Assembly (NCBI GenBank): GCA_000004695.1
Contig: CM000152.2
Location: 2,272,001 to 2,336,000 of the forward strand
DNA: 64,000 nucleotides
Direction of reading: 5' to 3'
Origin: Dictyostelium discoideum
Lineage: Eukaryota
Part shown: positions 1,560 through 60,754 of the stretch, piece by piece
How positions within the stretch are numbered: position 1 is the stretch's first letter
Layout: each line of letters starts with the position of its first letter
Made by a program: the position numbers and the translations under genes
The notes under the pieces: generated by a model
Databases searched by the model: none
What the model was told of the DNA's origin: nothing
Seen by the model: only the letters and a program-made list of their open reading frames with translations

Positions 1560-1991
1560 TTGAATTGGTTGTTCAAAATATTTTTCAGTAAAATCTTGAA
1601 TTAATTCAACTGATGAATTACATTCTTCAATTTGATTCCAAAACATTGGTTTAAATTCAATTAATGATCTAATTAAAAATAAACATCTCTCTCTAATTTT
1701 CATTCTAAACTCTAATTGAATATTATATAAATTTTCATAATGTTTCTCTTGACTATATATTGATATCAATGACTGAATGTATGATTCAGTAGATAAGAAA
1801 TAATCATTATGACATAAATTTACAATTTCAATAAATGTATCATCCTTATAATAATAATCCATCAATTTCAATAAAATTTGATTAACTGTAACATTCTTTA
1901 CAACTTGATTACCTTTTTTAATTATATAATTTGATTGATCTTTTTCGTTAATCTAAATTAAAAATAATTTATTATATTTTAATATTAATAT

Positions 1992-2022
<31 letters not shown>

Positions 2023-4340
2023 AAAACCTACATCAAATATTTTCTTTAAATTTTTAATTATAAAAAATGTAATTAAAATTGCATTATCATATTGTTGAAT
2101 ACTAGCATCATTATTAATTTTAAATAATATTGGACCAAAAATATTTGAAATTTTATGTTGAATAATTTCTAATTTCTCTTGGTCTTCATAACTTAGAGAT
2201 TCAATTAAATTAATATCAAAACTATTATTATGATTTTCATTTTCATTTTTATCCATTGTATCAATATTATTATTATTATTACTATTATTATTACTATTAT
2301 TATTACTATTATTACTATTATTACTATTATTATTACTATTATTATTATTTTCAATACCAATTTCAATTTGAATTAATTTACAAAGATGTGATAATAATGA
2401 TTTTAAAACTGTCCAATGAATTTGTGGTTGTGAGAATATTATTGAACGTACAAATGATAATTTATATCTTTCATCATTTTCATCGATAATCTTATTAATA
2501 GTTTCAGAAAGTAATACATCTGGTAAAATTGAATTTGGTAATACTTTAAAGAAATGAATTAATAATTCACCCAATACTTGTGGTTCTACCATTTCATTCA
2601 AATTTTTATATGCATCCTCTTTTCCTCTAGTAACTAATTTAATTAATGATTCAATTGTTATTCTATTTCTTGGTGATGATGGTTCAATAATTGTTGTTGT
2701 CATAACAATTGGTTGTGGTTGTGATTGTGGTGGTAGTGGTAGTGGTAGTGGTAGTGGTAGTGGTGGTGGTGGTTGTATATTTCCACTATTTCTTATATTT
2801 GATGTTTGATTGTTATTATCTGTACCAATATTTAAATCTGGTATAGTTATACTATTTCTTATATTTGATGTTTGAATATTATTAATATTATTAATATTAT
2901 TATTATTATTTACATTATTATTACAATTATTTGTATTTGTATTATTGTTACTATTTGATTCGCTGCCGCTGCTGCAAATTTTACTATTATTTGTTGAGGT
3001 AGAAGTTGAATTATTTATATTATAAATAATTTCAATTGATTCTTTAGTTGATTCTAAATGAGTTATTAGATGATGTAAGAAAACAGGATAAGGTGAATCA
3101 CCTAATAATCGCATTGATTCTAAGGGTATACCAAATACATCCTCTTTGAAACAATATTGTTGTACATCACCCCTTGCATTTCTAGTTGTTAACATTTTAC
3201 TTAATGTTGATGCTGCTGCTTCTTTATTTGTATCAACTGTTGATTTTTTACTTGTTTTAAATAATGGTTTAAAAACCAATGCTGTTGTATTTGATCTTTC
3301 TCTAGGTGAGACTGGTACTTCAATATTATCATTATTATTATTACCATTATTATTATTTGTATCAAATCCAATTGTTACATTATTAGCACCATTTTCACTT
3401 GTAAAACGTGGTGATGAAATTGGTGTTGATTGATTTGATGATTCTTTTGAACTAAATAAAGATATTAAAATATTTTGACCAAATGCAATTGATTTATGAG
3501 TTTCTCTACTTGGTTTTCTTGATGCAACACCATTATTATTATTATTGTTATTATTATTTGATTGTTGATTAATTGAAAATTGATTGGTTGAATAGGATCT
3601 TGGTGGTGAATTAGAATAAGGTGAATTTGAAGTTGTAGTTGGGGTTGATGCTGGTGTACTCCCATTACCACTATTAGTAGTAGTAGTTTGAGAGTTTGTT
3701 GCTGTTGTATTATTATTATTATTATCACTATTAATAGAATCTTGATCTTCCTCTGCAGCCAATACAATCTTTGAATCTTTATCTTTTAAAGGTGATAAAA
3801 GATAATTTAAATTATTTGTTTTATTCTTTCTTAATGTTTTACCACCACCACCACCACTGCCACCACTTCCACTACCACCAAATGATGGTAATGAACCACT
3901 TCTACTTCTAGTCTCTGGTTTCAATCTAGATTCTTGATGAACAATATTCAAATTCTTACTTGGTGATGTTGATAATTGTAATGGTGGTATCTTTGGTGGT
4001 GATGATGAAATTTTATCGTCTTCTATTCCGTTGTTATTGTTTTTGTTATTATTATTCTTTGGAATTGGTAATGATGGTGAAGTATTTGTAGTTGTTGTAT
4101 TTTTTGTAGTATTAATAATTGGTGGTGGAGTTGTAACTTCAGTTGTTGTTGGTGTCGATACTATACTTGGAGTTGAAGGAGCAGTATAAGAACCACTATT
4201 ATTATAATTATTATTTATAATGATTGGATGATTTGATTCTTTTAATATTGATTTCGAAGGTGATTGAACAGAAACACTAAAGAAACGATTTCTCTTTTTC
4301 TCAAAGCTACTTGGTTCACCATTAAATGTTAATTTCTTAC

Positions 4341-8533: not shown

Positions 8534-11500
8534 TTACAACTGCTCGTCATTACCGTTTGGGGTGTTGAAAGATGAATTATTAGGTGATTCGAAATCATTA
8601 TTAGAATATTCAGAAGGTGAATTTGAGTTTGAATTATTTGAATTTTGGCGAGAATCGCTGATCATTGTTGATAATTTGGTACTGTTTCTATTTTTTGAAC
8701 CTCCGCTATTTGTTGGACTATTATCTGAACTTGTATTAATATTTCTAGCACGTTGTTCAAAACAATACAAAATACTAAATCCAGGAACGATTTCAGTGAT
8801 TATTAAACCAATGAAACTGAATATCATTGAATTTACATTTCCTGCTACTAAAATCAATACAAATACACAATGTAATAAAAATCCAATCGAACATGCAACA
8901 GTGAGTGTAAAAATTTTTCTTTGATGATTTGATTTTGAGCCCACTTTAATATTGGTTGAACGCATAACAATGAATAAACGGCCACCCAAGTAAATGAATG
9001 CTGCACCCATAATTAATGAAATTAATGCTTGAATCACCGCGTAAACAATACTAACTACACGTTGTGGTGTTGAACTTTCCACTGGAATTATAATACGCGA
9101 ACCACAATCATTACTTGGATCGGTATTGGTATATTGGAAAACTAATACAATGGCAATGAATAATAGGTAGAGGAATGCATTGATTACAAATACAATTGTA
9201 AATAATCTCTTTGATAAATTCTCAGCAGATTTATTCTTTTTCAATACCAAGAATACAATGACATACCAAAGTACTAAAAGAATATTAAATGCTGTAAAGT
9301 AAATAAATGTTGGTAATACCACTAGAATGTAATCGGCGATTGGACTATCAGATAAATTACCACTTGGCATAATAAAGAAATAAATGGCTCTAATTGTGAT
9401 AAATAGTGTTACGACACCAATTAAAAGATGGGTTAGTTGGAAATTTCTTTTTTCTGAAACAAACTGAGTTCTAACAATAAGACATAATTCAAATAAACCC
9501 CAAATTGAGACTACTGAAAAGAGAGCACCCAATGTATACATTAATGCTCTTGATGTTGAGTCGAATGCTTGTTTACTTTCATTTTCCCATTCATCCATTC
9601 GATTAATTGGGAAATAAATTGGATTACCACCTTCAATGGTAACAATTGAACATAACATTAAAACTTCATCTTTACCTGCAGTTACACTATCCTTTGAAAT
9701 TTGAGTGAATATTTTATTTGATTGAATTGGAGTTGGTGTTGTTGATTCACCATCGATTTGAACTGCAAAATCTAAAATTGGATATTTTGTGCTAGATAGA
9801 GATATTTTCAAACAAATGGTTGCTTCATTTATACCATCTTGTGATTTAATCATAATACCATCTCCTAATAATGTACCAATGATTGCATCATTAGAGTTTT
9901 TAACACCATATTTATCAGCTTTCTTATAGGATACGAAATTTGATGCTAATGATTCTTTTTGTGCTGATGTATAGATTTCTCTTGAAATTTGTGAAATTGA
10001 TAAAGATTGACAACTTTGAGAGATTGAATCATTTGAAAATTCAATTTTACCATAATCGAATGAAAATGATGAATTTACACCTGCGCATGGTTTAGTTTGA
10101 CCTAATAATGGTGTTGATGCAGTGAAACATTGTGAGCCACCTTTACCTGAACAACTACATGTAATTGAGTTCAAATTTGATTGTAATCTTTCCATACGAC
10201 AATATGCTTCTGAACGGAATAAATCTGCAACTTGAGTTTTTGCTGCTTTTGTAACACTCTTGTAGAATAGTTGATAATTGAATACACTATCGATATCATT
10301 TGGAATGAATGATTTCGCAGTATTCCAAACAATTGGTTTATAAACACCTGGTAACCATGTAGCTGCTTTCCATTGGAATTTATTTGTCCATTTATTGAAT
10401 GAGTCCATACAACCTTCACATAAATCTTGATCCATTTCATTGAATTGGTAGTTGAATGGTAAATTATTAACTGTTATAGTGGATTCTAAAATTTTACAAC
10501 CCATTTGTGATGTACATGAACTTTGATTTCTTGCCGGTATCCACCATACACCACCATCATCTTCACAACTAACTTTACTCAAGTAGTCCAATCCTAATGG
10601 ATAACAACCATTTGGTGAATCTTGTTGGGCATATGGTTCACAACTTATGCCACTAAATTTACCATGTGGGAATAAACATTTACCATATCCATCAGGATAA
10701 TTATAATTTCTTGTAGTGGCTTGATTGAAATAAAATTCATCAGAACAAATACCTGCTGTTAAACATTCTTGTTCAGTTTGACACTCAATTGGTTTTAATG
10801 AGCATAAACTTTGTTGAGCATCTGGACCAATGCATTCACCTTCAAGTTTTGTTGAACAATCTATCCATGTATAACCTGAACCAGCAGTAATACATTGTTG
10901 TTCATCTGTTGCAGATTTTAATATACAAACTTTTGCTTCGGTTGACCATTCAGTTGTACCTACAGGATTATCTAATGCTGCACAATTTGTGCTATTCATT
11001 CCGGTTTGTAAAATTGCACAATAATCATCTTGATTATTTGCTAAACTTGAAGAGCATTCATAACCACATGGTACTGAACATTTACCTTTAGAATTACAAT
11101 TACTTTCGCTTGTTGCTGTTAAATCATATTCACCATTTGGTAAAAGACAAATTTGATTTTGAGTTTGACATGATGTTTGATCTGTAAATTCAGTAGCTAC
11201 ATGACATTGAGTATCTTCATTTGTACAAACACCACAAAAATCTTTTAAAACACAAGCATCTTCACATGACTCTTCAATACCATTTTCAGTATATGTATTA
11301 TCACTGCATGACAAGTATGGACAAATACCCCAAGAAGTACAATTATCAAAATGTGATACTAATCTAAAATCCCAATATAAAAACATACTATCCAAACAAG
11401 TATCATGATGAGAAAGGCATGAACCATCCAAACATCCATTTGTTGAATAACATTGTTCTTTGCTGTATGATACTCTTGACCCCCATGTATATGTAGAACG

Positions 11501-27660: not shown

Positions 27661-28678
27661 CAAAGCATTTTTTTTTTTTTTTTAATTCGATCTCACCTAA
27701 AATCTTTTCAAAGAGTTTTGGTAATTTTATTTGATCATGAGATGTATGATAGATTTTTTGTTAGGTTTGATGATCATAATTCTCCACACCAAAAAAAATA
27801 AAATAATAAGAATTTATTCATTCTGGTTACAAAACAAAAAATTGAACAAAAATAATTATAAAGGAATTTCACTTTTTAATTTTTTTTTTTTTTTTTTTTT
27901 TTTTCGGATGAATTGTTTTATTAGAAAAAAAACATGTGGGTCAGAAAACAAAAAAAAAAGACTATAAATACTATTTTAAAATTAATTTTTTTTATTTTTT
28001 TTTTATTTTGAGGGGCGAAAAAAAAAAAGATATTTTTGATAAGAACATTTCAATTTAAATTTTTAATTTTTCTTTCACCTTTTTTTTTTTTTTTTTTAAT
28101 TATTAATTTATATTTTTCTTTTTTTCCTTGTTTTTTTAAGAAAGCATTTTTTAATTTTTTAATATCAATTTTTTATTAATTTATATATTTTTTTTTTTCT
28201 TGTTTTTTTTTTTTTTTTTGGTCTACCAATTTTTTTTATATTTTTTTTTTTAAATATTAAAAGATTAATATTTAAAGGAATTTAATAGTGTCTTTTTTTT
28301 TTTTTTTTTTTTTTTTTTTTGGCGTATTCCAAAAGTCTAAGAATCTCTTCAAGAATTTGATAGGGTTATAAAAAATAAAATAAGAAAAACGATTCACGCT
28401 TTACAGCATTCATATAATATTAATTGTGTGTTCCTTTATTTATTATGATCAATAATACATTAAAAAAAAAGAAAAAAATAAAAAAAAAATAAAAAAATAA
28501 AAAATAAAACAAAAGGACAACTCGCGAAGGGTTTTTTTTTGGAGAAAAATTCAGAGTAATTGCTGTAAGGCGAGCTTATTTAAAAATTAAAAAAAATCTA
28601 TTAATTAGTAAAAAAAATTTTAATAATAAAATTTTTATGGGATTTTTTTTTTTAATTTTTTTTTTTTGCCTCAGCTCC

Positions 28679-48236: not shown

Positions 48237-48737
48237 AAAAATATAAAAAAAAAAGGTTTATAAAGGGGTATGTGGGGGTTGTTGATTTTTTTTTATCAAA
48301 ACTACCTTTATCTTTTTTTTTTTTTTTTTTTTTTAAGTTATCTTATTAAATCTAACTTTATCTGTCCAATTTTTAAAATTTTTTTTTTTAAAAAAAAAAC
48401 AAGAATTTATAAATCTGTCAAACGGATGATGGATGGATATTTTATATTTGTATTCTGTATTTACATTGTTAATTTTTATAATGTTTTTTTTTTTTTTATT
48501 AATTTTTTTTAAAAAAAAAAAAAAATATAAATAATAAAAGAAATTATTTTTTATTTTCATTATTAATCTTCTTTTAATAGTTATCAACAAACAAAAAAAA
48601 AAAAGTATTTAAAATACTTGAGTATATAATTTCAATATTATTATCTCAAAAAATTTAATAAAAATATATATTAATTTTTTATTTTTTTTTTCAATTATTT
48701 ATTTTTTTATTATAGAATTTAAATTTTTTACAAAAAA

Positions 48738-49070
48738 ATGGCAGCATTAGAAAATTTTTTAATTTTAAGAGATGGAATTAACCAATCAAAATTTATGGAA
48801 ATGTTTGAAAAATTTTTTCATGAAAATGTTGTAATGATCCAAAATGGAGCCATCATAGAGGGAAAAGCCAAAAATAGAGAAATCCAAGAAAACTTTATTA
48901 AAAACTCTGTTATTCATGAAATTAAAATTGTTTCATTTGAAGAAAGGGGAGACACTATTGTTTATCAAATGGTAATGAATTTTGAAATTGGTGGTCATGT
49001 AATTAACAAAAACCAAGAGGTTCATCAAACTTGGGAATATGATAAAGTTATTAGAGAATTATATGTTTAG
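48738..49070 (+). CDS. Small hypothetical protein (110 aa), possibly NTF2/SnoaL-like fold
   Basis: ATG in an A-rich context. The ORF has normal composition and sits in an otherwise AT-extreme region. No recognised motif; the fold guess is weak. Confidence 0.5.
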   Translation: MAALENFLILRDGINQSKFMEMFEKFFHENVVMIQNGAIIEGKAKNREIQENFIKNSVIHEIKIVSFEERGDTIVYQMVMNFEIGGHVINKNQEVHQTWEYDKVIRELYV

Positions 49071-49488
49071 AAAAAAGTAAAAAAGAAAAAAAAAGTAAAA
49101 ATTAATAATTTTATATAAAATTAAATAAAAATATCATTTGAATTTATTTTTAAATGATTTAATAATTAAATAAAAAAAAAAAAAAAAAAAAAAAAAAAAT
49201 AAAAATAATCTTTAAGAAAGCTAAAAAAAACATTGATAATTTTTTTTTTTTTATGGATCCTATTCTTATTAATATCCAAAAAAACAAAAAAACGTTTAAA
49301 AAAAAAAAAAAAAAAAAAAAAATAAAAATAAACAAAAAATAAGGATAAAAATAACTTTTTTTTATGGGGGTTACAATTAATTTTTAATAGGGGGTTGGAA
49401 AAAATAAAAATAAAAATAAAAATAAAAATAAAAATAAAAATATAAAATATTAATAATTTAATTTTTTAAAAAAGATATACGTGGATAA

Positions 49489-49758
49489 TTAAATTTTTAT
49501 TAAACACAAAACATTCTTTTTCATTGTTTTTGAAATCGATATAATTTTTTTTTCACTTAAAAAGCTTTTTTTCTTTAATTTAAAATTTGATTTGCCAATA
49601 TTATTATTTAAGGTTTTCTTAACTTTTGGAATTTTGATTTTACCCTCTCTTTCTAATTTTCCTAAATGATTTCTAATATTTTCAATTGGACAATTATTTA
49701 TATTATTATTATTATTATTTATTTGGTCATTATTTATTTGGTTATTATTATTAATTTG

Positions 49759-49830
<72 letters not shown>

Positions 49831-50121
49831 TTCATTTTTAATATTTTCATTTTGTGGTAGAGGATTTAAAGATGGATTAAAGGTCGAACATGGAATATTA
49901 GAAGGACGGAAAATAAATTCGGAACTATATCTTATATTGGCATTATGATAAAAATTTAATTCTTGATCATCGAGAGAATCATCGTCATCAACACCTTCAA
50001 ATTCAAAAACCAATGGCTGGGTCGATAGAAATTGTCTTTGTTCGAGGAGATGACTAGTTGTATTTAAGCATGTTGGATGAATTAATGATATAGTTTCAAA
50101 TTCTGGTAATAAACTTTCCAT
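49489..50121 (-). CDS. Small Asn-rich protein of the 'MESLLP(E/Q)F.TISLIHP' family, divergent paralog, 210 aa
   Basis: ATG 50121-50119. The N-terminus MESLLPEFETISLIHP..SHLLEQRQFLSTQPLVFEFEGVDDDDS..QELNFY and the C-terminus NIRNHLGKLEREGKIKIPK are collinear with the three tandem copies at 53.5-57.9 kb. A central (AAT)n tract is present. Confidence 0.6.
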
Positions 50122-50314: not shown

Positions 50315-50662
50315 CCTTTTTATTTTATATATGTTACCTTAATTTTTTTTTTTTTTTTTTTATTTTTATATAAATAACTGTTTATGGTGGTTAGAAATTT
50401 TTTTTTTTGTTTTCTTTTATTTTGATTTTTATATTATCGTGATGGTGAGGATGAAATAAAAAGAAATGAAAAAAAAAAAAAAAAAAAACAAAAAAAACAA
50501 AACAAAAATAAACAACACAAAAAAAAAAAAATAATAATAATAAATATATAAAAAATAAAAAAAATAAAAATAAAATAAAAAATTTAAAAATAAAAAAAAA
50601 AAAAAAAAAAAAAAAACAATTTAAATATGTAAAAATAAAATTTAATTAAATCTCGACATTAC

Positions 50663-50770
50663 GATCACCATGGGTGATAATTAATTGTATCCGAATAATA
50701 ATGTGGGTGTATAAATTATAATAGTATTAATAATAATAGTGCGTGGTGTGGGTGTGAATGTGTGTTGAAT
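50663..50770. promoter_or_regulatory. Inverted repeat ATCACC-ATG-GGTGAT, then a GT-rich G-box-like cluster (gtgggtgt, gtgcgtggtgtgggtgtgaatgtgtgttg), about 550-650 bp upstream of the divergent MESLL paralog
   Basis: Seen in sequence. The GGGTGATAAT core recurs at 54888 and 56830 inside tandem units A and B. Confidence 0.3.
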
Positions 50771-51649
50771 AATATCCAAAATGATTGGCTTAATAAATTA
50801 TCTTTTTTATTATTACTATTTTTATTTTATTTTATTTTATTATTAATTTAATTTTTATTTTTATTATTTTTAATAGTTATTGTATTGTTGATGGAAAATG
50901 GTGGTGTTGGATTATAATTTAAAATAACTATTTCTACAACAACAACAACAACAACAACAACAAAAAAAAAAAAAAAAAAAAATACAATAAAAAAAAAAAA
51001 AAAATCAAAAATAACAACAACACATATTTTTTTTTAAATCTAATAAAAAAAAACTTTTTGAAATTTATATTTTTTTTAATCTTTTTGGCGAGAGATTTGT
51101 ATTTGAAAATTATTTTCCACCAAATGAGATTCAAATCAACTCCCCCCACCACTACAACCACACATGAAAATTAAAAAAAAAAAAAAAAAAAAATTTAATT
51201 AGGGGGGTCTGTTAACTAAATTACATATATATATATACATTTTTCATATGTAAATGATCTTAGGGTAAAATTAAAAGTAATAATATACTTTTTTATGTAA
51301 TTAAAATGAGTGTGAAAGTGGGTTGTTTTGTAAACTTGTTTTTTTTTTTTTTTTTACTTGTTATTGTAACATTTTGGTGATCTAAAAATATAAATGAATT
51401 TTTAAAATTAAATATCATACCATTAACTATATATTTTTTTAAATAAGTGGGTGAATTTGAATGTTGGTGAGTGTGTGTGAGAGTGGGTTATTATGTATTA
51501 AACTTGTTTAGAGAAAAAAAAAAAAAAAAATAAAAAAAAAAAAAGGTGGTTGTGTGTGTAAATGGTGTGGGGAAATTAAATTAAAAAATGGCTTGAAATA
51601 GAAAAAGTATAGAGTTATTCTATATACATTTGTGTAAAAATTTATTTCC

Positions 51650-51688
<39 letters not shown>

Positions 51689-52465
51689 TGCCAATGAGAA
51701 CTTTTATTTTAAAATTTTTATCTTATATTAAATTAATACTAATATTAGATCTAAAAAAATTGGTATTTTAAGGGAATAAAAAAAAAAAAAAAAAACTGTT
51801 TTAATAAAGTCATATCATATAAATTTCCAAATTACTCTACTTTAATTTTATTTTTTTTATTTTTTAAAAATTTTAATTTGTTAGGTAACAATAAATATTT
51901 CATTTATTTGAAAAATTAATTCATAAAATAGACTTGAAATCAAAAAAACGTCAAAAAAGATAATAGTGATTTTTTTTTTTTATTTTTAGATTTTATTATT
52001 TGCCAATTGTAAATGGTGTGGGGGAAAAAATGTTTTTCATTATTTTTTATTTTATTTTTTCCACTTTTAAAAAAACAGTAAAGTTTATTTGTAGCGACAA
52101 TTTTAAAAAAAAAAAAAACAAAACAAAATTTTATAAAATAATAGTTTTTGAATTAAGATTTTAAAACATGTCTCCATTTGATCGAAATTTTTATATAAAT
52201 TAATAAAATTTAATTTTAGATCAATTAAAAATAGTAAAAATGAAAGATAAAAAACTTTTTTAAAAAAAAAATAAATAAAAAATAATAATGATACATAAAC
52301 CTCATATAATTCAATGGTGTTGATGATGATATAAATTAATGTCAATACAATAAAAACTTTGGGAATAGGGAGTATTTCATAAACCTCTTAATTTTTGAAA
52401 AATAATTAGAAAAAAAAAAAAAAAAAATTTATAAATTAGTTTTGTGTGTACGTGTCTGTGTATGG

Positions 52466-52503
<38 letters not shown>

Positions 52504-53509
52504 AAGATGATATTGTTATTATTGATTGTAAATTAAGGTTGGATGATTTAAAATTTTTATTAAACTCCAATTACTACATTTGATAATCTATTATTAATAA
52601 TATTTATGAGAAATAATCACATTTAATCTATTGAAATCTTGATAATTCTTTTTCTTTTTACTACCAAAAAAAACAACCACATCTTTTATTCATTTTTTTT
52701 TTTTTTTATACAAAAATAGGTTTTATCTTCCTCAAATCATTTATTTCTCAACTCTCATGACATTAGATTTTATTTTTTATAGATTAAAATTAAACCAATA
52801 ATAATAAACTTCCTTTTTTATATTTTTATTAAATCATGAATGTTTTTTATTTTTTTTAAAAAATGTTTTTATTGTTAATTTAAAATTTGTATTGTATAAA
52901 TATGTACAAATGGGTGTGTTATCTATTATTCCTAATAAAGTATTGTTAAATTTGTAATTCAATAATTGGGTAACACAAAACAAAGTTTCTAATATTGAAA
53001 AAACCATACCCCAAAAAAAAGTATTTAAATTAAACTTATGGGGGCAGTGTTTATTTCATTCTTAACTAATTTTTTATCTAATTATTATTTTATTAATAAA
53101 AAAAAAAAAAACACCAATTCAAAATTTGTCGTTATTTCATTTCCATAAAAAGGTGTTTTATTGTTAATTTTTTTTTTTTTTTTATTTTTTAAAAAAAATA
53201 AAAAATAAATCACAAATAAATAAAAAATAGAAAATTAAAAAAAAAAAAAATAAAAAAAAAATTAAAATAAAAAAATTAAAATAAAAAAATTTCCCTAAAA
53301 AAGTTAAAATTAATTTGTTTATTTTTTTAATTTTTTTTGTTTTTTTTTTTTTTTTTTTTTATCTGAAAAAAAAAAATCAAAATAATTTCAAGGAAAACAC
53401 TGGGGGTAGTTAATTGAAAAAAAAAAAAAAAAAAAAAATATGAACAATCTTTTGTTCATATTTTTTTTTTTTGAGAATATTTTATATTAAAAAAAAGAAA
53501 TAACTTTAT

Positions 53510-53742
53510 TTATTTTATTAAGCAATGAAACATATTTTTTTTCATTGTATTTGAAATTGAAATGAACTTTTTATCCCTTATAAAACTATTTTTTTTAATT
53601 TGAAAACCAGATTGATGGCTTTTATGAGAATTTAAACTTTTAGGAATTTTAATATGACCCTCTTTTTCTAAATTCTTTAAATGATTTGTAATATTTTCAA
53701 TTTGGTAATAATTATTTATATTATTGGTTTCATTTGAAATTA

Positions 53743-53821
<79 letters not shown>

Positions 53822-54037
53822 TTGTTTTAATGTTTGATCTGGTTTAAAATTATTATTATAAAAATTTAATTCTTGATCGAGAGTATCATCGGATTCGTCA
53901 TCATCCCAAACACCTTCAAATTCAATTACTAATGGTTGAGTTGATAGAAATTTTCTTTGTTCAAGGAGATGACTAGTTGCAGAACTCATTGGATGAATTA
54001 ATGATATTGTATTAAATTGTGGTAATAAACTTTCCAT
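53510..54037 (-). CDS. Small Asn-rich 'MESLLPQFNTISLIHPMSSATSHLLEQR..' family protein, tandem copy A, 175 aa
   Basis: ATG 54037. About 90% identical at nucleotide level to copies B and C outside the poly-N tract. Acidic block VWDDDESDDTLDQELNFY. C-terminus HLKNLEKEGHIKIPKSLN.HKSHQSGFQIKKNSFIRDKK.ISISNTMK. Confidence 0.65.
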
Positions 54038-54069
54038 ATTTTTATTATTAATTTTATTATTACTATTAT

Positions 54070-54110
<41 letters not shown>

Positions 54111-54342
54111 TAATTACTATGATACTATTTTTTTTTTTTTTTTTTTAAAAATTTTTTTTTTTTTTTCTTGCTTGTCTTATTATTTTTTATTTTTATTTTT
54201 TTTTTATACAAATAAAATAAGATTTGATTTGTTTTGTTTTTTTAAAAAAATGAAATTAAAAAAAAAAAAAAAAAAAAGAAAAGGAAAAAAAAAAAAGGGT
54301 AATAATGTAAAAAATTAAAATAAAAGTTTTTTTTTTTTTTTC

Positions 54343-54410
54343 ACACCGTCAGGTGAAATGAATTTATTTAAGAATTTCGCCAACAAAGATCTTTTTAGAT
54401 TGTTGTGATT
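54343..54410. promoter_or_regulatory. Conserved upstream module (copy A) with perfect 10-bp palindrome AAAGATCTTT (54385-54394), about 310-370 bp 5' of the gene ATG at 54037
   Basis: ..gtcaggtgaaatgaatttatttaagaatttcgccaacAAAGATCTTTttagattgtt.. The same block is at 56365-56440 (palindrome 56410-56419) and 58160-58230 (palindrome 58201-58210). Confidence 0.5.
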
Positions 54411-54695
54411 ATTTTGCGAATTAAAAAAAAGTTTTTTTTATTTTTTATTTTAATTTTATTTTTTTTTTATTTTAATTTTTTTTTTTTTTTTTTTTTTTAT
54501 AAAAATTTGCACATATGCATCGACGGGTAAGGTGCTCTAAATCAAATTTTTTTAATTTTATTTTTTTTATTTTTTAATTTTATTTTTTTATTTTTTTTTT
54601 TTTTTTTGTTTATTTATTTTTATTTGAATAATTTAAATGGATTGAACCATTTTAAATTTCTTTTGGATTGAACCATTTTTTTTATTTTTTTTTTA

Positions 54696-54726
<31 letters not shown>

Positions 54727-54848
54727 AATAACTCTATTTTATTATATTTTAAATTTTATATTAAAATTATTTTTAAAATAATAAAGAATATGATCTAATT
54801 CACTGTCTAATCGTCTCTAAAAAATTCAAACGTTAATGGGCGAAAGAC

Positions 54849-54881
<33 letters not shown>

Positions 54882-54989
54882 GTGTTGGGTGATAATATCT
54901 TTAAAGTAAGTATAAATTAAATATCATTGGCGGGTGTTTTTTTTTTTTTTTTTTTGAAAAAACTATATATTTGAAAATTTCAATCTGAT

Positions 54990-55133
54990 TAATCTCAAAC
55001 AACCAATATTGCTGTTAATAAATTAATGTGAAAAGTTCGCCCCCCTTTTGCCATCGTTAGTTACAAACTCCATCAAAACTAAAAAGCTTGACAATCGGAG
55101 GATCTGACAAAGATACACAAACATATGTTTATG
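54990..55133. other. Conserved about 140-bp non-coding element (copy 1 of 2) inside the tandem unit
   Basis: ctgttaataaattaatgtgaaaagttcgccccccttttgccatcgttagttacaaactccatcaaaactaaaaagcttga...ggatctga.aaaga.acacaaa.atatgtttat recurs at 56925-57068 with only a few substitutions. It is GC-richer than its surroundings and has no ORF. Confidence 0.5.
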
Positions 55134-55561
55134 AAAAAAAAAAAAAATAAAATAAAAAAAATAATAATAGCAAAATAAAACAATAATAATAATAATTATA
55201 ATAATTGGCCAAAAAAAAATAAAATAAAATAAAATAAAAATAAAAATAAAAATAAATTGCAAACCCTTTTTTTTAATCCCAAAATAAAAAAAAAAAAAAC
55301 GTGTCCAAAATTTGCAAATTTTACATTTTTTTTATTTTTTTATTTTTTTGTTTTTTTTATTTTTTTGTTTTTTTTGGGCCAAAAAAATCTAAATTTCGAA
55401 ATAATTTTTCGAGGAAGATGGTGAGTGGTCAATCCAAAAATTTTTTTTTTACAAAAAAAAAAAAAATATTAAAAAAAGATACCCACACAAAAAAAAAATA
55501 TAAAAACAGTATGGGGTGATTAAAATAATTAAAAAAAAAAGAAAAAAAGAAATAATTTTAT

Positions 55562-55791
55562 TTATTTTATAAAGCAATGAAATATATTATTTTTCATTGT
55601 ATTTGAAATTGAAATTAATTTTTTATCCCTTATAAAACTATTTTTTTTAATTTGAAATCCAGATTGATGGCTTTTACGAAAATTTAAACTTTTAGGAATT
55701 TTAACATGACCTTCTTTTTCTAATTTTTTTAAATGTTTTTTAATATTTTCAATTTGATAATTATTTATATTATTGGTTTCATTTGAAATTA

Positions 55792-55873
<82 letters not shown>

Positions 55874-56077
55874 TTGAATTTGTTTAAAATTATTATTATA
55901 AAAATTTAATTCTTGATCTAAAGTATCATCGGATTCGTCATCATCCCAAACACCTTCAAATTCGATTACTAGTGGCTGGGTTGATAGAAATTGTCTTTGT
56001 TCAAGGAGATGACTAGTTGCAGAACTCATTGGATGAATTAATGATATTGTATTAAATTGTGGTAATAAACTTTCCAT
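55562..56077 (-). CDS. Same family, tandem copy B, 171 aa
   Basis: ATG 56077. See copy A. The copies differ mainly in poly-N length. Confidence 0.65.
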
Positions 56078-56364
56078 TTTTTTTTTTTTTATTATCGTTA
56101 TAGTTTTTTTTTTTTTTTTTATTTATATTTAATTTATTTTAATATATTTATATTTATTTTATTTTTTAATAGGAAAATATTTTTATATTTAAATTTTTAT
56201 TATTATTATTTTATAACAAATGAAATATTTTTTGATTTGTTTTTTTTTAAAAAAAATGAAGAAAAAAAAAAAAAAAAAAAAGAAAAGAAAAAAAGAAAAA
56301 AAAAAAAAAAAGGGTAATAATGTAAAAATAAATTAAATTTAAATAAATTTTTTTTTTTTTTTTA

Positions 56365-56440
56365 AACCGGGTCAGTGACTAAATGAATTTATTAAAGAAT
56401 TTCGTCAACAAAGATCTTTTTGGATTGTTTGTGATTATTT
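56365..56440. promoter_or_regulatory. Conserved upstream module (copy B) with AAAGATCTTT palindrome
   Basis: gggtcagtgactaaatgaatttattaaagaatttcgtcaacAAAGATCTTTttggattgtt; about 290-360 bp 5' of the ATG at 56077 (minus-strand gene). Confidence 0.5.
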
Positions 56441-56875
56441 TTTTTAATTTGCGACCTAAAAAAAAGGTTTTTTTTTTTTATTTTTCTTTTTTTATTTTTT
56501 ATTTTTTTTATTTTCAAAAAATATTTAGGATTGCACCATTTTAAATTTCTTTTAATTTTCCACCATTTTTTTTTTATTTTGTTTTTAACTTAAAGTTATT
56601 ATTGTAATTGATTAATATCTTTTTTTTTTTTTTTTTTTATCTAATTTATAAATTTTATTAAAATTATTTTTTATAAAAAAAATTATAAATTTAAGTTTCC
56701 AGAAAAATAATTTCCATAAAAGGAAAAAAAACTATAAAAAAAAAAAAAAAAAAAAAATAGAAAAATATAAAAAAAAAAAAAAAAAATAGAAAAATATAAA
56801 AAAAAAAAAAATTTGCCCTTTAACAGTTGGGTGATAATATCTTAGATAGGTAAGTATAAATTAAATATCGTTTGT

Positions 56876-56920
<45 letters not shown>

Positions 56921-56924
56921 AAAA

Positions 56925-57068
56925 AAACTATACATTACAAACAACCAATGTTGCTGTTAATAAATTAATGTGAAAAGTTCGCCCCCCTTTTGCCATCGTT
57001 AGTTACAAACTCCATCAAAACTAAAAAGCTTGATAATAAAAGGATCTGATAAAGACACACAAATATAT
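56925..57068. other. Conserved about 140-bp non-coding element (copy 2)
   Basis: See 54990-55133. Confidence 0.5.
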
Positions 57069-57429
57069 GTTTATATTAAAAAAATAAAAAAATATAAAAA
57101 AAATAAAAAAATAATAACAATAATAAAATAAAACAATAATAAAAATAATAATGGTCAATTAACCAAAAAAAAAAAAAATAAATAAAAAAAAAAAAAAATT
57201 AATTACAGCGCAAATTTTACAATTTCAATTTTTTATTTTTTTGTTTTTTTTTATTTTTTTTTTTTGTCCAAAAAAAATCTAAATAATTTTTCAAGGAAGA
57301 AGGTGAGTGGTCAATCCAAAAATTTTAAAAAAAAAAATTTTAAAAAAAAAAAAAATATGAAAAAAATAGATGCACACAAACAGTGCGGGGTGATTTAAAA
57401 TTATTAAAAAAAAAAAGAGATAACTTTAT

Positions 57430-57918
57430 TTATTTTATTAAGCAATGAAATATATTATTTTTCATTGTATTTGAAATTGAAATTAATTTTTTATCCCTTA
57501 TAAAACTATTTTTTTTAATTTGAAATCCAGATTGATGGCTTTTACGAAAATTTAAACTTTTTGGAATTTTAATATGACCTTCTTTTTCTAATTTTTTTAA
57601 ATGTTTTGAAATGGTTTCAATTTGATAATTATTTATATTATTGTTTTCATTTGAAATTATATTGTTATTATTATTATTATTATTACTATTATTATTATTA
57701 TTATTATTTATATTTTGTGTTTGTTTAAAATTATTATTATAAAAATTTAATTCTAGATCTAGGGTATCTTCAGATTCGTCGTCGTCCCAAACACCTTCAA
57801 ATTCGATTACTAATGGTTGAGTTGATAGAAATTGTCTTTGTTCAAGGAGATGACTAGTTGCGGAACTCATTGGATGAATTAATGATATTGTATTAAATTG
57901 TGGTAATAAACTTTCCAT
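57430..57918 (-). CDS. Same family, tandem copy C, 162 aa
   Basis: ATG 57918. See copy A. Confidence 0.65.
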   Translation of the reverse strand: MESLLPQFNTISLIHPMSSATSHLLEQRQFLSTQPLVIEFEGVWDDDESEDTLDLELNFYNNNFKQTQNINNNNNNNSNNNNNNNNIISNENNNINNYQIETISKHLKKLEKEGHIKIPKSLNFRKSHQSGFQIKKNSFIRDKKLISISNTMKNNIFHCLIK

Positions 57919-58159
57919 ATTTTTATTATTATTATTATAATTAATTTTTTTTATTTTATTTTATTTTTATTTTTATTTTTATATTTATTAGAAAATTTTT
58001 TTATTATTCTATTACAAATAAAATATTTTTTGATTTGTTTTTTTTTTTAAAAAAAATGAACAAAAAAAAAAAAAGAAAAAAAAAAAAAAAAGAAAAAAAG
58101 AAAAAAAAAAAAAAGGGTAATAATTTAAAAAATAAATTAAATTTAAATAAATTTTTTTA

Positions 58160-58230
58160 AACCGGGTCACCAAATGAATTTATAAAAGAATTTCGTCAAC
58201 AAAGATCTTTTTAGATTGTTTTGTGATTAT
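58160..58230. promoter_or_regulatory. Conserved upstream module (copy C) with AAAGATCTTT palindrome
   Basis: gggtcaccaaatgaatttataaaagaatttcgtcaacAAAGATCTTTttagattgtt; about 240-310 bp 5' of the ATG at 57918. Confidence 0.5.
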
Positions 58231-58676
58231 TTTTTTTTTTTTTAAAATTTGCGACCCAACCATTCCACAAACAAATGGTTTTTTTTTTTTTTTTTAATTT
58301 TGATTTTTTTAATATTTTTTATTTTTATTTTTATTTTTATTTTTATTTTTATTTTTTTTTATCGATACGAATTATTCCAAAAACAAATGGGTTTTTTTTA
58401 TTTTTCTTTTTTTATTTTTTATTTTTTTTTTATTTTTAATTTTATTTTGGCAAGTGGATTTTGCACCATTCAAAATTTTGACCTTTTTTTTTTTTTTTTT
58501 TATTTTTTTTGTTTTTTAAGTTATTATTATAATTGATTATTATCTTTTTATTAATACTAATTCTATTACTTTTATTTAAATCTATTTTTTATTATAAATA
58601 ATTTTAAGTCTCACAAAACTTTTTACTTAAAAAGGAAAAAGCCGAGAATAGCTAAAAATTTTAAATTTCATCAATA

Positions 58677-58748
58677 GTTTCGATAGCTCAGTGGAAGAGC
58701 AAGCGACTGCAAATCGTTAGGTCGCCAGTTCAATCCTGGTTCGGAACT
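58677..58748 (+). tRNA. tRNA-Cys (anticodon GCA), 72 nt
   Basis: The cloverleaf folds by hand: acceptor GTTTCGA/TCGGAAC (one G-T wobble). D-stem GCTC/GAGC with loop AGTGGAA. Anticodon stem AGCGA/TCGTT with loop CTGCAAA, anticodon GCA. Variable loop AGGTC. T-stem GCCAG/CTGGT with loop TTCAATC (B-box-like). Discriminator T. Followed by a T-run. Confidence 0.9.
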
Positions 58749-58751
58749 TTC

Positions 58752-58758
58752 GTTTTTG
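58752..58758 (+). terminator. Pol III oligo-T terminator downstream of tRNA-Cys
   Basis: TTTTT run within cgtttttgtt immediately 3' of the tRNA. Confidence 0.6.
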
Positions 58759-59116
58759 TTTGAGATGGGGTCTCCGAACTTCGTATTTTATAAAAAATTG
58801 TTATTTTCGTCTTGGTAGCCATAAACATACAATAAAAACCAATGGCTACTACATTTTAAAATTAAAATTCTTTTTTTAGTTTAAATTACCAAATAACTAC
58901 TTTACTTTTTAAAATTAGAATTAATAAATAAACTATTAATTATTGTTTATTTCCTTTAATGGATAAACACTGATTAATCAATATTAATAAAAAAAAAAGA
59001 AAAAAAAAACACAATTGGTGGACTGCAAATTAACGTGGTCCATAATTCATTTAATTAATACAGTTTTATTAATTGATTAATTTATCAAATTTTTAAATAC
59101 TGCATTAAAATGTAAT

Positions 59117-59147
<31 letters not shown>

Positions 59148-59596
59148 TAATAATAACACAAGGTATATAAATATATATAACAGTTTTCTATTTAATTTAT
59201 AGACATTTTATTTAGAATTTTTATTACAATTGTTTACTTTTTTTTATTTAATTTAATTTATTTAGTTTTTTTTTTATTTTTTTATTTGGTTTTAAATATA
59301 GCACCAATTCAATTAACAGTATTTTGTCGACATGACTCAAAAGATAAAGATTTTTTTTTTTTTTTTTAAAAAAAAAAAATTCTTTGAAAATTATTAAATT
59401 AATTTTTTTTTTTTTTTTTTATTAAAAAATTAAGAATTGTTTAAAAAAAAAAAAACAATAAAAAGAAATTTTTTTTATTTATTTTTTTATTAATAACAAC
59501 AATTTAAAATTATTATTAAAATCATTTGTTTATTTATTTGTTTATTTATTTATTTATTTATTTATTACTTATTTATTTTTAATTATAAAATATTAA

Positions 59597-60754
<1,158 letters not shown>

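Follow-up and report, generated by a model that had tools for sequence, protein, structure and literature searches.

Concerted evolution of tandem duplicates, driven by gene conversion or by unequal crossing-over, is a general phenomenon. It provides a close parallel to the locus described here, in which two near-identical non-coding segments lie within a tandem gene array of Dictyostelium discoideum. Several classes of RNA and one class of protein-binding site described for this organism also have to be considered. Long non-coding RNAs (lncRNAs) were catalogued from strand-specific, rRNA-depleted RNA-seq data. Intergenic models had to be at least 200 nt long, wholly intergenic and without a tiling path to their neighbours; just 2 raw reads were needed to pass the filter, only uniquely mapped reads were used, and the fragments measured 150-200 bp (Rosengarten, 2017; PMC5295588). 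Class I RNAs are defined by a terminal stem, an 11-nt motif and a length of ~42-65 nt, together with a DUSE ([AT]CCCA[CT]AA) located ~60 nt 5' of either the start or a TGTG box, and candidates lacking a DUSE were reported as not expressed (Kjellin et al., 2021; PMC7919456). In D. discoideum, box C/D snoRNAs are listed at 47 loci (Diesend et al., 2022; PMC8817022). GtaC, a GATA factor of Dictyostelium, binds GATA-like motifs in vivo; in vitro, the sequence preferred by its DNA-binding domain is GATC (Santhanam et al., 2015; PMC4506546).

The tandem array and its element copies

The window, i.e. the whole stretch of DNA that was analyzed, comprises 64 kb of D. discoideum chromosome 3 (chr3:2,272,001-2,336,000). 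Three paralogous genes are arranged in tandem on its minus strand, g1 (53510-54037, 175 aa), g2 or DDB_G0279621 (55562-56077, 171 aa) and g3 or DDB_G0279623 (57430-57918, 162 aa), and the element occupies the two spacers between them; its restriction to two copies follows from the fact that three genes have two inter-gene spacers. It was not found beside the divergent fourth paralog g0 (49489-50121, minus strand, 210 aa), nor upstream of g3 or downstream of g1. The array consists of head-to-tail gene-plus-spacer units of ~1.9-2.05 kb each, an architecture that recurs in four other genomes. A three-unit alignment reveals unit-wide homology: the entire spacer aligns, with the element being just a part of it. 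Each unit also contains a promoter-proximal block (54296-54425, 56311-56450 and 58115-58250; strand unassigned) that is 88-94% conserved in Dictyostelium citrinum and served as the internal yardstick of real constraint.

By BLAST and nhmmer, 54996-55133 and 56938-57074 are 94% identical over 137 nt. Including their 5' extensions, copy a (54978-55133, plus strand) lies between g2 and g1, and copy b (56935-57074, plus strand) between DDB_G0279623 and DDB_G0279621. A stretch of 23 nt at the 5' side of copy a is missing from copy b, and the longest perfect run between them, 83 nt, forms a core at 55009-55091 and 56951-57033, respectively. The GC content amounts to 0.35 and 0.31 in the two copies, compared with 0.14-0.16 in the spacers and 0.19-0.21 in the flanking coding sequences (CDS). 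Across a scan of 9 kb, the element is the GC-richest intergenic island, reaching 0.40 in 100 nt. In these respects the first-pass annotation was accurate: it had described two GC-enriched, near-identical copies of ~140 bp, a C6 run, which is indeed found in the element of the reference genome, and a location ~430 bp 3' of a gene stop, for which 429 nt were measured between the end of copy a and the stop of g2. A 26-nt core probe has exactly two sites in the 64 kb, copies a and b, and none in shuffled sequences; BLAST and nhmmer likewise yielded no further copy in the window. No match to a 23-nt core was detected among JGI metagenome contigs.

A tRNA-Cys gene had been proposed to occupy the position of the element in the third unit. 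The only tRNA gene reported by ARAGORN (58676-58749) does lie at a similar distance from its gene, but the third-unit sequence beyond ~58250 no longer aligns with the other units. The tRNA sits in non-homologous sequence, and kinship between it and the element was rejected.

Identity between copies within a genome

The identity of the two element copies is not exceptional within the repeat unit. Perfect runs between units 1 and 2 reach 114 nt, 84 nt (5' end of the CDS) and 83 nt (element), so that, on the measure by which the element was to stand out, it is conserved no better than the rest of the unit. Like concerted tandem duplicates elsewhere, the array combines head-to-tail units with a mosaic of perfectly identical tracts amid 8-13% diverged sequence, and paralogous copies within one genome have lineage-specific variants in common. 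TCG plus C6 is present in both copies of the reference genome and in no other genome, D. cf. discoideum has five private variants and a 3-nt deletion common to both of its copies, and strain L005 has TTG plus C4 in both. The variants specific to the reference strain point to gene conversion, and we infer that conversion, rather than independent parallel change, accounts for the shared variants. The 3' part of the element clusters by position: the b copies of the window and of L005 differ from each other at 1 of 32 sites, as against 6 of 32 between copies a and b of the window. Concerted evolution extends to the CDS of the paralogs, with two D. citrinum copies being 97.9% identical to each other and 87-91% identical to D. 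discoideum. Nothing tested departs from the pattern of concerted evolution, the conversion events being read from four genomes rather than directly observed.

Divergence between strains and species

Orthologous comparison gives a different picture from the identity within one genome. Between strains, the element is 8.9% and 8.1% diverged with 1-3 indels, compared with 2-7% for the flanking CDS and 3% for the third codon positions of the neighbouring aldehyde dehydrogenase gene. Against D. citrinum, 62-65% of the element positions match, with 13-14 gaps; the promoter-proximal block reaches 88.5% in this comparison, the CDS 87-92% and the third positions of the aldehyde dehydrogenase gene 87%. 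Strain L004 has a copy b that is interrupted by an inversion and a ~40-nt deletion. Judged from these alignments, the element is estimated to evolve at or above the synonymous rate, with the caveat that third codon positions may give too low a value for the neutral rate, and no sign of evolutionary constraint is apparent. The spacer as a whole apparently evolves neutrally. The GC richness of the island does not fit easily with neutrality, as a purely neutral island should decay under a strong AT mutation bias.

Within the element, the short blocks AAATTAATG, ACTAAAAAGYTT and GGATCTGA are invariant across the copies of the D. discoideum complex (the last as GGATCTGA(T)AA; 7 copies) and recognisable in D. 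citrinum, and could be candidate binding sites. The element might then be a distal cis-regulatory module, i.e. an enhancer or upstream promoter element that binds factors at these blocks and gives rise to a weak plus-strand RNA as a by-product. It would act on the paralog ~0.9-1.0 kb downstream (in gene orientation), or else on how the 3' end is formed in the paralog lying 430 nt upstream. The location in the spacer fits a promoter-distal element, and the best-conserved block, GGATCTGATAA, resembles GtaC sites in combining a GATC core with a canonical WGATAR site, a likeness that at this locus consists of a motif match alone. AGATCT also occurs in the promoter-proximal block of the units. However, these motifs are 4-10 nt long and were picked post hoc without an enrichment test, and copy a of the reference genome reads GACA for GATA. 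Copy b of L004 has lost the GGATCTGA block, the segment as a whole has the rapid divergence described above, and neither g0 nor the outer flanks of g1 and g3 are accompanied by an element. A regulatory role is regarded as unlikely.

The minus-strand reading frame

The element had also been described as free of open reading frames. Strictly, this does not hold, since a short open frame on the minus strand ends at 55023 in copy a and at 56965 in copy b; the frame is not conserved. A small coding exon or short ORF (..LSSFLVLMEFVTNDGKRGANFSH*), possibly a decayed piece of the neighbouring paralog, would agree with the same TAA ending the frame in both copies and with a resemblance by eye to the N-terminal region of the paralog (QILRLSSFLVLMEF versus QFLSTQPLVIEFEG). 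That resemblance is equalled by 1646-3673 of 5000 shuffles (33-73%; Smith-Waterman), the ATG start of copy a is replaced by ATA in copy b, and the frame is broken by indels of 1, 2 and 3 nt among strains and by a 13-nt deletion in D. citrinum. Moreover, no gene is called at the site in five annotated genomes, and the exact peptides are not on record in public assemblies. A conserved coding unit is already refuted, and the coding reading is given hardly any credence. Its variant as a pseudo-exon of the paralog was rejected, with shuffled peptides scoring as high; when the paralogs were compared with the spacers by tblastn, low-complexity poly-N and poly-K matches dominated and nothing usable emerged.

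A published transcript over copy b

Transcription of copy b at a low level is already known from the published catalogue, which contains the single-exon lncRNA CUFF_2354_1 / DDB_G3972143 of 221 nt at chr3:2328953-2329174 on the plus strand (Rosengarten, 2017; PMC5295588, Files S4 and S6). With an offset of 2,272,000 between chromosome and window coordinates, fixed by two flanking genes, the model corresponds to 56953-57174 and spans copy b together with a further 100 nt rich in A. The match came from the supplementary tables; in the main texts of the literature, no mention of DDB_G0279623 or DDB_G3972143 was found. Like other lncRNAs of the catalogue, the copy b transcript is intergenic, short and single-exon, has a GC content above the intergenic background and a very low abundance, and runs antisense to both neighbouring genes. 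It differs in that the model extends 100 nt past the conserved element and in that the comparative data speak for no constraint; the catalogue's definition of an intergenic lncRNA applies to copy b only, and copy a has no entry. The Spearman coefficient of DDB_G3972143 with both neighbours is -0.308607, which is what a profile with a non-zero value at only 1 of 13 time points would give, and the RNA was apparently detected at a single one of the 13. Two observations run against a neutral reading of the locus: the short blocks are invariant within the complex, and the sole intergenic lncRNA model in the 64-kb window, within the stretch of the coordinate-sorted File S4 that was covered, falls on the element.

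The first-pass annotation had suggested a plus-strand non-coding transcript of which the element and the recurring donor-like blocks might together be exons and splice donors. The transcript itself is corroborated by the catalogue, as a single-exon model over copy b with no signal of structure or constraint. The blocks do recur. The first (..TATCTTTAAAGTAAGTAT..; plus strand, 54880-54935 in copy a and 56826-56880 in copy b) is 87% identical between 54880-54935 and 56826-56872. The second (GGTGAGTGGTCAATCC; plus strand) is 94% identical between 55395-55445, located 117-167 nt beyond the stop of g2, and 57278-57326. Their assignment as exons and splice donors is unsupported, since the catalogue model has one exon and excludes both. 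D. citrinum retains the GT[AG]AGTAT of the first block and has lost the GTGAGT of the second.

Tests for known RNA classes

A cmscan of 52000-59500 against Rfam returned no match to the element at E<=10, the only hit being the tRNA; the same library detects a Class I RNA at 28518-28575, which served as positive control. A structure analysis, proposed earlier as a check, gave z-scores of +0.89, -1.00, +0.48 and +0.55 when each copy was folded on each strand, and neither stable hairpins nor a fold beyond that of shuffled sequence, as expected of a box H/ACA snoRNA or another structured RNA, was found on either strand of either copy. Of the predicted pairs, 22 on the plus and 33 on the minus strand, none is compensatory and some are broken, with low power in an alignment of 7 sequences at ~90% identity.

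The element shares with Class I RNAs its restriction to dictyostelids, its multi-copy and intergenic nature, and an AATGTG that resembles the TGTG box. In contrast to these RNAs, it has no covariance-model match (RF01414), DUSE at -60, terminal stem or 11-nt motif and is about twice as long, and this class was rejected. The DUSE has 9 exact matches in the window, none of them between 45301 and 62326; the one at 28635-28642 precedes the control Class I gene by 60 nt. A Pol III promoter of the tRNA type was rejected as well: the B-box-like AGTTCGCCCCC (B box, GGTTCGANNCC) occurs in the reference genome alone, with GTTTGCCCC, GTTAACCCC or GTTAGCCCC in its place elsewhere. A scan for promoters and terminators of the bacterial type is uninformative for a eukaryote.

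With the box C/D snoRNAs of D. discoideum, the element has in common an intergenic position, a GC content of ~35%, an invariant CTGA and ~100 nt between candidate boxes. A snoRNA gene of this class, or its decaying remnant, could account for the D box CTGA within GGATCTGA, which is the same in every full copy and in D. citrinum, and for a perfect C box, AATGATGA, ~80 nt upstream of CTGA at the orthologous spot in D. citrinum. But the C box RUGAUGA is absent from D. discoideum, where AATGTGA stands in its place in each of the 7 full copies and AATGAGA in the broken copy of L004. A box C/D guide is a conserved antisense segment of 10-21 nt, complementary to rRNA, upstream of box D or D'; here the 15-20 nt that immediately precede the D box vary more than any other part of the element (GACAATCGGAG / GATAATAAAAG / GGTAATCGAAG / GATAATCAAAG) and are deleted in D. 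citrinum. Direct reading of the sequence discloses no convincing terminal stem, no Rfam snoRNA matches, and neither copy is among the 47 catalogued loci, whether compared by coordinates or by sequence strings (PMC8817022). The box C/D reading is already largely refuted and retains only a very faint chance.

A further reading takes the element as a two-copy, lineage-restricted ncRNA gene of the D. discoideum complex, with a plus-strand product of ~120-220 nt that would act via its primary sequence and have no stable fold. The transcript model covers copy b on the appropriate strand, begins 2 nt inside the identical core, and has TATA-like (CTATACATTA / CTATATATTT) and CCAAT sequences 20-40 nt ahead of its start. 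The mapping rules of the catalogue would suppress its reads, as unique mapping together with fragments of 150-200 bp leads to under-counting of a short RNA from two near-identical genes. On the other hand, no DUSE lies within 150 nt, where the Class I gene of the window has one at exactly -60, and the searches for an Rfam family and for a thermodynamic or covariation signal came out empty. Divergence is fast and indel-rich, a natural strain has lost one copy, the RNA was apparently detected at one time point, and the gene is not among the 47 box C/D loci. Such a gene is considered quite improbable. A more specific version, in which the gene is under-counted by the dropping of 83-nt-core reads as multi-mapping and its sequence is maintained by possibly GC-biased gene conversion rather than purifying selection, appears very improbable.

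Discussion

The reading judged on balance probable is that of an ordinary duplicated spacer island in a young array, kept alike by conversion and transcribed weakly and adventitiously. The element would be the most sequence-complex spacer island in a young head-to-tail array of the DDB_G0279621 / DDB_G0279623 family. Its copies would look 'conserved' as a consequence of recent duplication and repeated patch homogenisation by gene conversion or unequal exchange, which together make purifying selection unnecessary to explain their identity. A short, unspliced intergenic RNA would arise from the plus strand at very low level and be recorded as DDB_G3972143 over copy b. This transcription is most likely adventitious, originating from a mappable, GC-richer island, and not that of a working RNA; we infer that it has no function.

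For comparative work in D. discoideum, the locus entails a caution. The genome is ~85% AT outside genes, and any complex island in a duplicated spacer resembles a conserved element. Identity between paralogous copies tells little where gene conversion is active, and here the appearance of constraint was removed by orthologous comparison with four related genomes. For DDB_G3972143, a comparative context is added, namely the existence of a second, unannotated and near-identical copy. This second copy, an evolution at least as fast as that of synonymous sites and the disruption in one natural strain argue against a conserved function of DDB_G3972143.

The tandem array and its spacer element

Three paralogous minus-strand genes, g1 (53510-54037), g2 (55562-56077) and g3 (57430-57918), are arranged in head-to-tail units of ~2052 and 1868 nt, in which homology spans gene plus spacer; a fourth, divergent paralog, g0, is called on the same strand at 49489-50121. 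The published chr3 coordinates of DDB_G0279621 (g2; chr3:2327562-2328077) and DDB_G0279623 of D. discoideum AX4 (g3; 162 aa; chr3:2329430-2329918) agree exactly with the window genes in length and spacing (Rosengarten et al., 2017; PMC5295588), which places the window at chr3:2,272,001-2,336,000. Its low GC, a Class I RNA gene and a polyubiquitin gene likewise identify it as dictyostelid DNA. No Pfam domain exceeds the threshold in the four paralogs; the only resemblance, a faint winged-helix-like one, sits close to the C-terminus. Matches to the family (7 hits) are confined to the D. discoideum/D. citrinum group; its poly-Asn tract varies in length and its copy number varies among genomes.

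The three genes enclose two spacers, each harboring one plus-strand copy of a GC-enriched element, copy a (54978-55133) and copy b (56935-57074). That these copies are near-identical, as the first-pass annotation held, is borne out by pairwise alignment (94% identity over 137 nt, with a perfect run of 83 nt, 55009-55091 = 56951-57033), and a 26-nt core probe matches only copies a and b in the 64-kb window (shuffles: 0). The donor-like blocks described beside them likewise recur in both units. GC content is 0.35 in copy a and 0.31 in copy b vs 0.14-0.16 in the spacers and ~20% in the window. Nearby spacer contains comparable, though weaker, GC islands at a density of roughly one per 2 kb. Two further islands (0.32-0.33) lie between g0 and g1, at 50649-50791 and 51059-51225, the second carrying a C6 run (~51143) and a G6 run (~51204); neither has detectable similarity to the element. 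A tRNA-Cys gene had been thought to occupy the element's place in the third unit. It lies past ~58250, where the alignable part of that unit ends, and is no replacement for the element.

Probable concerted evolution of the copies

The identity between the copies is not special within their unit: the same unit pair also shares one perfect run of 114 nt and another of 84 nt, which lies where the coding sequence has its 5' end, and units 2 and 3 have a 122-nt run in common. The remaining alignable spacer blocks are 87-94% identical between units. Conservation of the proposed ncRNA or regulatory element is thus no higher than that of the rest of the unit.

Searching for exact matches to the paralog proteins yielded syntenic 20-kb loci from five assemblies. 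These are a second assembly of D. discoideum (99.3% identity to the window), the D. discoideum strain loci L004 and L005, D. cf. discoideum (L003) and D. citrinum (L002). In none of the five is a gene annotated at the element's position. Two full copies, in equivalent spacers, are present in L003 and likewise in L005, L004 has a single full copy beside a second that is inverted and truncated, and a similarity search of the D. citrinum locus gave no significant match. TCG plus a C6 run is present in both reference copies and in no other genome compared; the D. cf. discoideum pair has in common a 3-nt deletion and five substitutions seen nowhere else, and the pair in L005 is marked by TTG plus C4. 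The 3' third groups by position, window b differing from L005 b at 1/32 sites and window a from window b at 6/32. The paralog coding regions follow the same concerted pattern. As read from these alignments, such a mosaic of genome-shared and position-shared variants appears to be the signature of gene-conversion tracts, which would explain the perfect 83-nt run. In the reference-specific changes that the two copies have in common, AT has given way to GC; speculatively, this would fit GC-biased conversion.

Copy b of L004 is split by an inversion of ~0.26 kb (L004 9108-9330), which also inverts the donor-like block, and has lost ~40 nt including CTCCATCAAAACTAAAAAGCTTGATAATCnAAGGATCTGA and GGATCTGA. 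It is a natural knockout of an element copy.

The polyubiquitin gene adjoining the array, starting at 59610 in the window, differs in repeat number among genomes (L001 5342-6487, 381 aa; L003 6838-7755, 305 aa; L005 7508-8425, 305 aa; L004 6066-6755, 229 aa). A DDE_3 transposase gene near the Complex1_LYR gene in L004 (2680-3668) and L005 (4003-5287) has no counterpart in the reference window, L003 or D. citrinum.

Divergence and constraint

Between the window and L005, substitutions amount to 8.9% in copy a of the element and 8.1% in copy b, with 1-3 indel events besides, vs 3.0-6.7% in the three paralog coding sequences and 3% at third codon positions of the neighboring aldehyde dehydrogenase gene. 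Only 62-65% of its positions can be matched to D. citrinum, with 13-14 internal gaps; the corresponding values are 88.5% for a promoter-proximal block of the same unit, 87-92% for coding sequences and 87% for the aldehyde dehydrogenase third positions. We conclude that the element appears to evolve without detectable constraint. The main rival reading, a cis-regulatory module working via a few invariant short blocks, is unlikely. Among these blocks, GGATCTGATAA joins GATC and GATA cores, which are recognised by the Dictyostelium GATA factor GtaC (PMC4506546).

The promoter-proximal block itself (AAGGGTAATAATGTAAA ... AAATGAATTTAT..GAATTTCGYCAACAAAGATCTTTTTAGATTG..TTTGCGA; 54296-54425, 56311-56450, 58115-58250; L002 9640-9800) lies 260-390 nt upstream of every paralog ATG in all three units and shows 88-94% identity to D. 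citrinum. It is a much better candidate for a constrained cis-regulatory element.

RNA class and coding capacity

An Rfam search of 52000-59500 at E<=10 returned the tRNA alone and nothing over the element, and the DUSE consensus [AT]CCCA[CT]AA (PMC7919456) is absent between 45301 and 62326. As a positive control, Rfam recovered a Class I RNA gene (RF01414; 28518-28575, minus strand; 43.6 bits) with an exact DUSE, TCCCATAA, 60 nt upstream at 28635-28642 (minus strand), the textbook arrangement. Compared with shuffles, both copies on both strands fold with no extra stability (z +0.89, -1.00, +0.48, +0.55). Consensus folds of seven copies, of limited power at ~90% identity, have weak energy and 0 compensatory changes on both strands.

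A box C/D snoRNA was rejected: CTGA is invariant, but all full copies in the D. discoideum complex have AATGTGA where the C box should stand, and the stretch that would serve as guide varies most of all and has been deleted from D. citrinum. The locus is also absent from the 47 catalogued D. discoideum snoRNA genes (PMC8817022). In the D. citrinum counterpart (L002 ~8935-9020, minus strand of the locus), a perfect C box, AATGATGA, precedes the conserved CTGA by ~80 nt. This C box is missing from the D. discoideum copies; it may be a coincidence of AT-rich sequence or belong to a snoRNA-like gene peculiar to that species. A tRNA-like reading fails: the B-box-like GTTCGCCCC occurs in the reference genome and in no other genome compared. 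A minus-strand open frame has no ATG in copy b, is disrupted among strains by indels of 1, 2 and 3 nt, and resembles the paralog N-terminal region no better than chance. The element thus falls short of what defines a Class I RNA, a snoRNA, a tRNA-like element or a coding exon.

A published transcript over copy b

An intergenic lncRNA, CUFF_2354_1, was reported at chr3:2328953-2329174 (plus strand), between DDB_G0279623 and DDB_G0279621 (File S6, PMC5295588), and the File S4 entries listed include DDB_G3972143, a 221-nt single-exon lncRNA at the same coordinates. In the window it occupies 56953-57174 (plus strand); its start falls 2 nt into the core that copy b shares with copy a, and its end 100 nt beyond the element, in A-rich sequence. 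Among the File S4 entries listed, it is the sole intergenic lncRNA inside the 64-kb window, and copy a has no lncRNA entry. The proposal of an unannotated plus-strand non-coding transcript is therefore supported in part, by RNA over copy b that was already catalogued; the exons and splice donors proposed for the donor-like blocks are unsupported, DDB_G3972143 being unspliced with neither block inside it. File S4 names this interval CUFF_2310_1, and its ID column does not follow chromosomal order, apparently through mis-sorting. A published antisense RNA model, CUFF_2352_1 (48581-49195, minus strand; chr3:2320581-2321195), overlaps DDB_G0279615 (48738-49070, plus strand; 110 aa), which has weak similarity to SnoaL-like domains.

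The support behind the DDB_G3972143 model is thin. Only uniquely mapped reads were used and two raw reads at any time point sufficed (PMC5295588); its length approximates one sequenced fragment. Its Spearman correlation with either neighbor (-0.308607) is the exact value for a profile that is non-zero at 1/13 time points, a quantised value with 26 occurrences in the correlation file. Since unique mapping and fragment-size selection would under-count a short RNA from two near-identical genes, a better-expressed small RNA is compatible with the data; on the same grounds a genuine RNA gene restricted to this lineage is conceivable, though improbable.

Interpretation

The element may best be regarded as a sequence-complex island within a duplicated spacer, whose two copies would be held near-identical by recent duplication and gene conversion, and which seems to give rise to trace amounts of plus-strand RNA. 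We lean towards this transcription being, most likely, without function. The transcript over copy b had already been catalogued, and the repeat itself is what tandem duplication ordinarily yields.
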